Positions 3 through 2,617 of a stretch of DNA of 64,000 bases are shown piece after piece. This DNA comes from Longimicrobiales bacterium (GTDB taxonomy: Bacteria > Gemmatimonadota > Gemmatimonadetes > Longimicrobiales > Gaopeijiaceae), in the NCBI GenBank assembly GCA_965249725.1, contig CBDFMQ010000002.1:224001-288000 (forward strand), given 5' to 3'. Position numbers and translations under genes: made by a program. Position 1 is the stretch's first letter. Each line of letters opens with the position of its first letter. The notes beneath the pieces were generated by a model. The model ran no database searches, had not been told where the DNA came from, and worked only from the letters and a program-made list of their open reading frames with translations.

Positions 3-686
3 CTGACCGACGGGTTTGGTCGGCGGCGATCATCGGATGACGAAGACGATGAGGACGAGGCGGGCAACACGGACCCCGGGAACGACGACGGTGACGCCGA
101 CCTCGAGGACGAAGAGGGTCGCCACACGGCCGGCATCATCGCCGTGGACGAGGCGGGCAACATGGCCGTAGTGCTTCACTCCATCAACAGCTCGATCTAC
201 GGAGAAACGGGACTCTTCGTCGGCGGAATCACGATCCCCGATGCCGCGGCCTTCCAGCAGGATCTCGTTATGCGCGTCGGGCCTGGACAACGGGTTCCGG
301 AGTGGGATACACCGACCATCGTGCTGAAGGATGGCCGGCCCTATCTAGGCAGTACGACCATCGGGGGAGGGTACCACGAGGTGAACATCCAGAACCTCAT
401 GAACGTGCTCGCCTTCGACATGGAGCCCGCCGAGGCGGCCGTCCAGCCCCGCATTCGAAAGAAGTGGCCCACGTTCGATCCGCTGCGTCAGCCCTACGGC
501 GCCCCGGGAGAGTACTCGCTGGAGATTCTGGAGGCCGTGCGTGATATGGGCATGGATATCGTGCCCACACCGGCCGGTAACCCGGCCTCATTCGGCGGCG
601 CGTGGGTGGGTGTGCGGATCGATCCGGAGACCGGTGTTCTGCAGGGAGCGCGGACGGGCGGCACGGGTGCTATCGTAGGGAACTAG
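3..686 (+). CDS. ggt: Gamma-glutamyltransferase (Ntn-hydrolase) family protein, 5'-truncated by window edge
   Basis: Frame is open from position 3 and reads ...DEEGRH-TAGIIAVDEAGN, the small-subunit N-terminal Thr region. It continues with PTIVLKDGRP..GGG and a C-terminal IDPETGVLQGA typical of GGT. Confidence 0.8.
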   Translation: MTDGFGRRRSSDDEDDEDEAGNTDPGNDDGDADLEDEEGRHTAGIIAVDEAGNMAVVLHSINSSIYGETGLFVGGITIPDAAAFQQDLVMRVGPGQRVPEWDTPTIVLKDGRPYLGSTTIGGGYHEVNIQNLMNVLAFDMEPAEAAVQPRIRKKWPTFDPLRQPYGAPGEYSLEILEAVRDMGMDIVPTPAGNPASFGGAWVGVRIDPETGVLQGARTGGTGAIVGN

Positions 687-728: not shown

Positions 729-1379
729 CTAGTCGCCGAGCAGTGCTAACAGCGAGGCACGGGCTTCGGGCACGTCGAAGTCATACGGGCCTTGGCCCCC
801 CCGGTAGTGGATTCGACCCTCGTGTAGGATGTACATCCTCTCGGGCCACGCCGAAAACGCCTCGCACGCCGCATCGTCCATGCCGTCTACCAGGGTCGGG
901 ATGGTCAGGTCGAGCCGTTCGGCGCATAGCTGGGCGGTCTCCCATCGCTCCCGGAACGCCTTGTGCTGTTCGATCCGGATTCCTGCCGCCTCGTTCGAGT
1001 CCGTCTGCCAACCGTCTACGGCGTGAGCCTCTGCGATGTAGACGATGAAGCAGCGCGCGCGATCACTCAGCACCTCATAGAGGCTCTGCAAGGCGCCAGC
1101 CTGGCGCCGGAACGGTGGTCACGTGTAGCTCCCGAAGATGAGCATCACTGGCCGGTCGTATTCGGCAGCGATGTCCACGGTGTCAGAGCCGGCGGAGTCC
1201 TGATCCGTCAGGACGGTCAGCTCGAGCTCCGGCACGGGGTCACCGACCTCGAGGCGATCGGGCCGACGGTACGCCACCAACGTGCACCGGATGGTCTCCC
1301 GCCTCGCCCCGTCGGCCGCCTCGGTGAGGGACGACTCGTCCCTTTGGTCCACGAGTTCTCGGTCTGCCGGTTCGTTCAT
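729..1379 (-). CDS. Iodothyronine deiodinase-like thioredoxin-fold selenoprotein (Sec at UGA 1121-1119)
   Basis: ORFs 1119..1514 and 729..1091 are in the same frame. Read-through gives RPVMLIFGSYT-U-PPFRRQAGALQSL...YIAEAHAVDGW...PERMYIL...GGQGPY, matching deiodinase motifs FGSxTUPPF, YIxEAHxxDGW and PERLY. ATG at 1379 chosen as start. Confidence 0.88.
1092..1118 (-). promoter_or_regulatory. Putative bacterial SECIS element
   Basis: Minus strand: UGA-CCACCGUUCC-GGCGCC-AGGCU-GGCGCC. A GC-rich stem with a G-containing apical loop starts 10 nt after the in-frame UGA. Confidence 0.75.
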
Positions 1380-1477
1380 GCTCTGCACGACGTCTGAAGG
1401 GTGTAGCCGGGTTCGGGGCACGCGCTCGCTGCTTTTCCCGCTCACGATATCGAGTACTATAGGTCCCGGGTCAACTC

Positions 1478-2617
1478 GTGGCACCGGAGAGAGTATTGAG
1501 CGAATCGGCAACAACGGGCCTTCCCGAGGGCCGCCTGGTGTCCTTGGACGTCTTCCGAGGGCTCACGATGTTCGTGCTGATCGCCGAGAGCGCCCTCGTA
1601 TACGAGGCCCTCATGAGCGTGGCAACGCCGGGCTCGTTCCTGGAGGGGATCGTCCTCCAGTTCAATCATCATCCCTGGCACGGACTGCGCTTCTGGGACC
1701 TGGTCCAGCCCTTCTTCATGTTCATCGTGGGCGTCGCCATGGCGTTCTCGGTCAATCGGAGACGACACGCGGGTGACACATGGGGTCACACCTTTCGGCA
1801 CATCGCGGTCCGTTGTGTGATCCTCCTCGGTCTGGGAGTCTCGCTCCATATCGGGTATTCGCGGGCCATGGTTTGGGAGCTCTGGAACGTCCTCAGCCAG
1901 CTCTCGGTCACCATCATGGTGGCCTATCTCTTGTTCAATCTTCCGTTCCGCACGCAGCTAGCGATCTCGTTCGGCCTCATTCTGCTGAGCGAGATTCTGT
2001 ACCGGACCTTCCCGGTATCCGGTTTCGATCAGCCCTTCGTCCAGGGCCAGAACTTCGGTGCCTGGATGGACACTGTTCTCATGGGCAAGATCAACCCGAG
2101 TGGTTGGGTGGCGATCAACGCCCTGCCAACCTCGGCGCACACCATCTGGGGGGTGCTGGCGGGAAAGCTCTTGATGAGCGACCGTGCCGGGTCGGAAAAG
2201 CTGAAGTACCTCGTGATCGGGGGGCTGATCGGGCTGGGGGTCGAATATGGGCTGGACTGGACGGGAATCACTCCGATCATCAAGCGCATCTGCACCAGTT
2301 CGTTCGTGATTGTTTCGGGCGGATGGTGCTTGTTGACCCTGGCCCTCTTCTATTGGCTGCTGGATCTGAAGGGGCGGCGATGGGGGACGAAGCTGTTCGT
2401 CATCGTCGGAATGAATCCGATCTTCATCTACATGTTTGCAGAGACGCTGGGGGAGCAGTGGTTCAACGATTTCGTCGCGGTCTTCACGCACGGAATTCTG
2501 ACCTGGGTGGGTGCAGGAGTCGGCACCATGGAGGTGGTCACCGCCTTCGTCGTGCTCGGGCTCATGAGCTATCTGTGCCACTGGTTATACCAGCGACACA
2601 TCTTCATCAGGATCTGA
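1478..2617 (+). CDS. HGSNAT/DUF5009-like membrane acyltransferase
   Basis: RLVSLDVFRG, DLVQPFFMFIVG, PIIKRICTSSF and GMNPIFIY motifs; multiple TM helices. Confidence 0.85.
   Translation: MAPERVLSESATTGLPEGRLVSLDVFRGLTMFVLIAESALVYEALMSVATPGSFLEGIVLQFNHHPWHGLRFWDLVQPFFMFIVGVAMAFSVNRRRHAGDTWGHTFRHIAVRCVILLGLGVSLHIGYSRAMVWELWNVLSQLSVTIMVAYLLFNLPFRTQLAISFGLILLSEILYRTFPVSGFDQPFVQGQNFGAWMDTVLMGKINPSGWVAINALPTSAHTIWGVLAGKLLMSDRAGSEKLKYLVIGGLIGLGVEYGLDWTGITPIIKRICTSSFVIVSGGWCLLTLALFYWLLDLKGRRWGTKLFVIVGMNPIFIYMFAETLGEQWFNDFVAVFTHGILTWVGAGVGTMEVVTAFVVLGLMSYLCHWLYQRHIFIRI

Follow-up and report, generated by a model that had tools for sequence, protein, structure and literature searches.

The window analysed here, a stretch of 64,000 nucleotides from a Longimicrobiales bacterium, contains on its minus strand a frame of 216 codons followed by TAG (1379..729), the sole internal TGA of which is codon 87, in the context FGSYT-U-PPF. 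The initial annotation had described two same-frame ORFs parted by the TGA at 1121-1119 in FGSYT-TGA-PPF, and these form a single 216-codon frame. It had also expected gene callers to split the gene, which is what happens: with translation table 11 the N-terminal half ends at 1119 and the C-terminal half, of 120 amino acids, corresponds to 1091..729, and the database entry for the gene (P0002) consists of the C-terminal half alone. The read-through protein matches Pfam PF00837 across the TGA, over residues 39-210, with 121 bits against a cut-off of 27. The position of the ATG is identical in both congeners of the host. A longer N-terminal half starting at TTG 1514 was ruled out, because the frame is closed upstream, three codons before the ATG, in the locus L025. 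The deiodinase-like gene is isolated, flanked upstream by a divergent NagX-like gene and downstream by a convergent gene of the gamma-glutamyltranspeptidase (GGT) family, an arrangement shared by both congeners. The features at the locus are as follows.

3..686, plus strand: 3' part of a GGT-family gene, the convergent downstream neighbour (profile match, context only)
729..1379, minus strand: coding sequence of a deiodinase-like selenoprotein of 216 amino acids, with ATG at 1379 and stop TAG (PF00837 match, reading frame)
837..845, minus strand: Pro179-Glu180-Arg181, corresponding to Dio1 Pro213-Glu214-Arg215, the predicted amino-acid-binding floor (alignment)
924..926, minus strand: Cys152, conserved in bacterial homologs (mouse Dio2 and Dio3 have Leu here) and a candidate for the resolving Cys (alignment, inferred)
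963..965, minus strand: His139, corresponding to Dio3 His219 of the proton relay and typical of the subfamily (alignment)
1008..1040, minus strand: motif YIAEAHAVDGW (Dio3 Tyr197, Glu200 and His202), where the deiodinase insertion loop also starts (alignment)
1092..1108, minus strand: bacterial SECIS hairpin with a stem of 6-7 bp at +11..+27 after the TGA and a small loop with G at +18 (folding, comparison across loci)
1119..1121, minus strand: in-frame TGA, codon 87, predicted selenocysteine at the position of Dio3 Sec170 (frame, alignment, homologs, contigs)
1122..1130, minus strand: Ser84-Tyr85-Thr86, corresponding to Dio3 Ser167-Cys168-Thr169, with Tyr for the proximal Cys (alignment)
1446..1484, minus strand: stretch upstream of the gene, conserved among three congeners and weakly resembling a sigma70-type promoter (consensus match only)
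1478..2617, plus strand: NagX-like membrane acyltransferase, the divergent upstream neighbour, below the NF046061 cut-off (context only)

Judged by its sequence, the gene belongs to the bacterial deiodinase-like selenoproteins, which were described in 2005 together with their Cys homologs and a bacterial SECIS (Zhang, Fomenko and Gladyshev; PMC1088965). It shares with the family of that description PF00837, the in-frame UGA at the catalytic column, a SECIS whose small loop contains a G, and the Cys homologs. The 2005 paper considers it probable that their function differs from thyroid-hormone deiodination and is perhaps a redox one, and a review from 2026 still places the deiodinase-like proteins among the computationally found families (PMC13188914). 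The family motif is given as UxxC in a table of that review, whereas here and in 34 Sec loci the corresponding residues are S-Y-T-U-P-P-F. An EF-hand fusion and a homolog in Dictyostelium are also on record (PMC9402790, PMC2375036). Unlike several homologs of the family, the protein has neither a signal peptide nor an EF-hand or TPR fusion. The NCBIfam model NF038285, “deiodinase family protein”, matches with an E-value of 1e-46 in its C-terminal half, reaching 159.7 of the 250 bits required and leaving the first 177 of its 347 positions uncovered. As these groups are delimited, the gene falls outside Dio1-3, NF038285 and the peroxiredoxins. The family comprises 2850 clusters at 50% identity and is undercounted, because 74 of the 80 database matches beyond the gene's own fragment contain the C-terminal half only; five span the catalytic column (four with Cys, one with Trp) and one is an N-terminal half. 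Animal deiodinases are absent from the 120 matches listed out of 517. We found no literature report of the family in Gemmatimonadota, for which members may be listed in the supplementary tables of selenoproteome surveys, and no assay of a bacterial member in the literature outside subscription journals and supplements.

The TGA at codon 87 very likely encodes selenocysteine, the insertion itself being predicted. Sec machinery in the host was implied by the initial annotation, and selA, selB, selD and the gene for tRNA-Sec (selC) were all found above their cut-offs in the host genome, which is 95.8% complete. It had further reasoned that homologs should carry Cys or UGA at this column, and that TGC or TGT in the reads would speak against recoding. 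The homologs do carry TGA or Cys: an in-frame TGA is present at the catalytic column in 34 of 35 related loci from a species-level genome collection, a set that is biased towards the query and consists of 29 Chloroflexota, 3 Planctomycetota, 2 Longimicrobiales and 1 Entotheonellaceae, and Cys is present in 125 of 141 representative homolog domains. The selA gene was found in all five genomes tested among those with related TGA loci. Contigs also keep the TGA; in four runs from four studies, a comparison that left out the possible source run, one contig each spans the gene with zero or two differing letters, none of them at the TGA. Both halves of the gene are, judging from codon substitutions, under purifying selection, with dN/dS values of 0.17 before and 0.12 after the TGA relative to the nearest intact congener.

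That the TGA is instead a true stop, making the locus a nonsense pseudogene or two small genes, is very improbable. It would fit the 35th related locus, that of the congener G001 (L028:5259-5270), where the TGA is kept and one base is missing immediately 3' of it, as well as a hairpin that is not unusually stable by itself. Against a true stop stand the presence of the same TGA in four phyla besides the relatives of the host, the selection on both halves, the covariation in the stem and the presence of the Sec genes. The one-base loss in G001 is plausibly an assembly indel, because the reductive dehalogenase gene of G001 is also split. In the database protein P0004 the start is shifted as in G001, and the conserved Glu of the EAH motif is missing. 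A Trp is found at the Sec column in P0003, P0109 and P0145, which are probably gene calls that read the TGA as Trp.

The strains in three of the four runs differ from the window at 1067 and 1072 (codons 103 and 105), outside the stem. All four runs also contain extra contigs that match only the TGA/SECIS stretch at window 1092-1147 and then diverge, which suggests related selenoprotein genes in other community members. Other in-frame TGA genes in the host genome are selD and two peroxiredoxin-like frames (together L021, L065 and L068). An in-frame TGA gene with a similar hairpin on host contig C2, near 162,199, presumably encodes a formate dehydrogenase subunit, judging from its motif. A genome-wide filter for TGA plus hairpin was rejected as a list of the selenoproteome, since its 92 candidates are mostly spurious.

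The hairpin, GGCGCC-AGGCT-GGCGCC (1108-1092), begins ten nucleotides 3' of the TGA, where it had been claimed to lie. The G at +18 in the loop is present in 30 of 31 distinct sequences, and the six stem positions in the 35 sequences are paired in 91.4% of cases, compared to 75.8% in shuffles. The stem contains 29 two-sided changes and has a covariation of 0.406 versus 0.126 in shuffles (0 of 500 shuffles), values that are inflated by the relatedness of the 35 sequences; in slid registers the covariation is at most 0.097. Two of the five SECIS measures, the number of pairs with a two-sided change (191/500) and the number of pair types (133/500), are not above the shuffles. The folding z-scores range from -1.4 to +1.0, so that stability is not significant alone, and an equally scoring stem follows 1.6% of 6000 random TGA triplets in the host genome (64% GC). 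The exact same geometry occurs after 108 of 107,573 TGA triplets. Stability was dropped as proof of a SECIS in this GC-rich genome, and the hairpin carries weight because it is conserved across loci, not because it is stable.

An AlphaFold2 model of the read-through protein (pLDDT 93) predicts the deiodinase fold, that is, a thioredoxin fold with the deiodinase insertion and the catalytic Sec position. The best match in a structure search is Dio3 (4TR4; Z 21.0, rmsd 2.4, 168 residues aligned), followed, at Z 15.9 and below, by thioredoxin-like proteins and peroxiredoxins, including AhpE (15.5) and Bcp1 (15.2). The model matches Dio2 with an E-value of 8e-16, and the sequence matches mouse Dio2 and Dio3 with E-values of 1e-22 and 3e-21. 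The animal deiodinases Dio1-3 (4TR3 and 4TR4 for Dio3, 9H48 for Dio2) are the closest fold match and have the Sec position, the proton-relay residues, the insertion loop and the Glu-Arg pair in common with the protein. However, the identity is about 30%, the transmembrane anchor is missing, the SECIS lies in the coding region, Tyr replaces the proximal Cys, Ile replaces the distal Cys239, and there is an extra Cys152. The initial annotation had called the protein soluble, had placed a Tyr two residues before Sec where animal enzymes usually have Cys, and had listed the motifs YIxEAHxxDGW and PERLY. The protein is predicted to be soluble from its hydropathy, as neither an anchor nor a signal peptide was detected (highest value over 19 residues 0.87, and -0.03 near the N-terminus), and the alignment places Tyr85 at the position of Dio3 Cys168. 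While the first motif is present, the second was misread, and the sequence is PERMY. The proximal and distal recycling cysteines of the animal enzymes (Dio3 Cys168 and Cys239) are absent at both columns in all 34 Sec loci; Dio2 likewise lacks the proximal one.

In an alignment numbered from Sec170 of Dio3, the residues Ser167, Thr169, Tyr197, Glu200, His202, His219, Glu259 and Arg260 have identical counterparts in the protein. The first six are assigned to the proton relay, the hydrogen-bond network and phenol binding in Dio3, and Glu259 to the amino group of the substrate (PMC12025243). In Dio1, the Phe258 position is described as occupied by Pro and the Arg275 position by Ala, Ser or Pro (PMC11592359). 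The corresponding residues here are Pro179 and Gln196, which is non-basic, and the predicted substrate site, with Pro-Glu-Arg and no Arg275, therefore appears Dio1-like. Pro179 alone is no marker, being also present in 123 of 125 Cys representatives. By comparison, 33 of 34 Sec loci and 54 of 74 C-terminal fragments have both His139 and Glu180, but only one of the 125 Cys representatives does. The pair marks a subfamily rather than Sec as such, because the Sec loci were sampled with a bias towards the query and either His139 or Glu180 is missing from other homologs of the Sec type within the phylum. Tyr114, Glu117 and His119 are retained by nearly all Cys homologs too, and are therefore no mark of a halogenated substrate.

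Cys152 is present in all 34 Sec loci. Among 141 representative homolog domains, two of which have Trp and were set aside, it occurs in 106 of the 125 with a catalytic Cys and in 3 of the 14 without one (Fisher p 2e-6), which makes it the first of 47 columns in this co-loss test; His119 ranks second. A tree-aware test of the co-loss of Cys87 and Cys152, with 12 state changes and three supported pairs among those listed, has no power. The helix that contains Cys152 aligns with α3 of E. coli BCP (hhalign probability 95%). This helix is one known site of resolving cysteines and is used by more than 95% of Tpx enzymes (PMC4749874), and the two cysteines of E. coli Tpx are reported to stay more than 12 Å apart until the protein unfolds locally (bioRxiv 10.1101/2019.12.26.888669). 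Cys152 was not set opposite Cys95 of E. coli Tpx by MAFFT, by hhalign or in an ungapped register scan; a count by eye back from the following strand does give that offset, but carries no weight as a test. On balance, Cys152 is somewhat more likely than not to be the resolving Cys.

The atypical 2-Cys peroxiredoxins with a resolving Cys in α3 (Tpx and some PrxQ/BCP) belong to the same fold family; they too have Ser or Thr at -3, and their equivalent helix contains a second Cys. Unlike in these enzymes, there is no Pro at -7, a deiodinase insertion of 25 residues is present and the Tpx Cys95 register is not recovered. The main alternative to a dehalogenase, and quite a possible one, is that the Sec protein is a peroxiredoxin-like peroxide or thiol/disulfide reductase, in which Sec87 would be the peroxidatic residue and Cys152 the α3-type resolving one. 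The fold, with the matches to AhpE and Bcp1, the location of Cys152 in the helix that aligns with α3 and the redox role suggested in 2005 (PMC1088965) are all consistent with this, as are Ser84 (-3) and Arg181, which recall the peroxiredoxin site and are found in 34 of 34 Sec loci. Moreover, a homolog in an Entotheonellaceae locus (L043) is located amid other redox selenoprotein genes. However, the Pro of the Pxxx(T/S)xxC motif, described as absolutely conserved in peroxiredoxins (PMC4749874), is missing from all 34 Sec loci and all 125 Cys representatives, the deiodinase insertion and His139/Glu180 are retained, and the genome already contains the two peroxiredoxin-like frames with in-frame TGA. 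A peroxidase, if that is what the protein is, would be an ordinary redox selenoprotein.

No operon clue to the function holds across phyla. The neighbours are not conserved among them, apart from non-orthologous GGTs, and neither a halogenase nor a dehalogenase was detected among the 76 neighbour frames scanned. The GGT-family gene is convergent and downstream in the host genus, and in five SAR202-type loci a gene of this kind lies downstream at a distance of up to about 5 kb. This link is a weak lead only, because the GGTs of the host genus and of the SAR202-type loci are 23% identical and each genome contains 4 to 7 paralogs. The NagX-like gene (1478-2617) is as patchy as the selenoprotein gene, occurring in 4 of 41 genomes searched, three of them in this genus. 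A dienelactone hydrolase-family gene adjoins the deiodinase-like gene in seven Chloroflexota loci only (L030, L031, L034, L035, L045, L051 and L052). In the Entotheonellaceae locus (L043:197-6045), merR, a gene for a DF-family (seleno)protein and a merC-like gene precede the deiodinase-like gene, and a split gene for an OsmC-related selenoprotein and an AhpC/TSA gene are also nearby.

The mer-type genes would fit a protein that detoxifies another electrophile through its Sec-Cys pair, such as a metal, a metalloid or a reactive halogen (hypoiodous or hypobromous acid, haloamines), and the 2026 review ties several bacterial selenoprotein families to metal resistance (PMC13188914). Such a role is unlikely: the mer-type context is found in one of the 16 gene maps listed, the protein contains no metal-type Cys cluster, and its residue pattern fits a site for an aromatic substrate.

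Elsewhere in the host genome, at L087:2615-3871 (about 2,768,600-2,769,900 on contig C3), there is a gene for a reductive dehalogenase, which scores 199.9 bits with TIGR02486 and so exceeds the cut-off of 160.35. Close homologs of it were found in 9 of 61 genomes, namely all three congeners and six genomes of the family without a deiodinase-like gene. This suggests that the lineage meets organohalides; the two genes are not thereby linked.

With a probability of roughly 45%, the product is a soluble Sec-dependent reductive dehalogenase of iodinated and brominated aromatics that is recycled through Cys152; there is some circumstantial support for dehalogenation as its physiological job, which we infer with the same caution. 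In the proposed mechanism, SelB would direct the insertion of Sec at codon 87, and Sec87 would attack the halogen of a halophenolic substrate, from which iodine or bromine would be removed. The substrate would probably be a halogenated tyrosine or a thyronine-like amino acid, gripped by Glu180 and Arg181, and the proton would be supplied through His139-Glu117-Ser84. Following local unfolding of the kind found in Tpx-type peroxiredoxins, Cys152 would then capture the oxidised Sec, which thioredoxin or a small thiol would re-reduce. According to halogen-bond calculations, iodine ranks above bromine and bromine above chlorine, and dechlorination is unlikely for deiodinases (PMC7144113).

A more specific idea, which is rather doubtful, is that the subfamily is a genuine deiodinase of prokaryotes: soluble, Sec-dependent, with a pocket of the Dio1 type, and removing iodine or bromine from halogenated tyrosines, hydroxylated bromodiphenyl ethers or thyronine-like compounds, with Cys152 serving its recycling in the manner of peroxiredoxins. 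If true, Gemmatimonadota, SAR202 and Planctomycetota would possess a dehalogenation route that tolerates oxygen and needs no cobalamin, and the subfamily would be a living link between the peroxiredoxins and the deiodinases of animals. Turnover of aryl iodides or bromides, if true, would give the microbial halogen cycle a further route and would also have implications for how thyroid-hormone metabolism arose. This member is small, soluble and single-domain, and no other homolog examined has a pocket as close to that of the animal enzymes, which makes it a convenient test case. Together with Cys152, the signature of the subfamily brings a question of function that is 20 years old closer to a direct test.

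Within the host's family, the gene is present in both congeners and in none of 34 other genomes, while selA is present in 24 of 36. In a sample of the phylum, 8 of 301 genomes have a PF00837 match, seven of them with a TGA, and several of these fall into other subfamilies, which carry signal peptides. A quick, unrooted tree was built from 77 rows (the query, 16 of the 34 Sec loci and 60 of the 135 full-length rows). In it, the gene and that of its congener form a well-supported group with two proteins from Planctomycetota, one from Chloroflexota and one further protein. This grouping appears compatible with lateral transfer; no donor is claimed. Among the distant Sec-type deiodinase-like genes in the phylum (L076-L079, L081 and L062), four have N-termini that resemble signal peptides and several have the same hairpin geometry, and many Cys-type deiodinase-like domains (P0280-P0343) are fused to TPR repeats. 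Elsewhere in the host genome, ARAGORN reported a second, permuted tmRNA at C1:219172-219609, which may be spurious, besides the standard one on contig C3.
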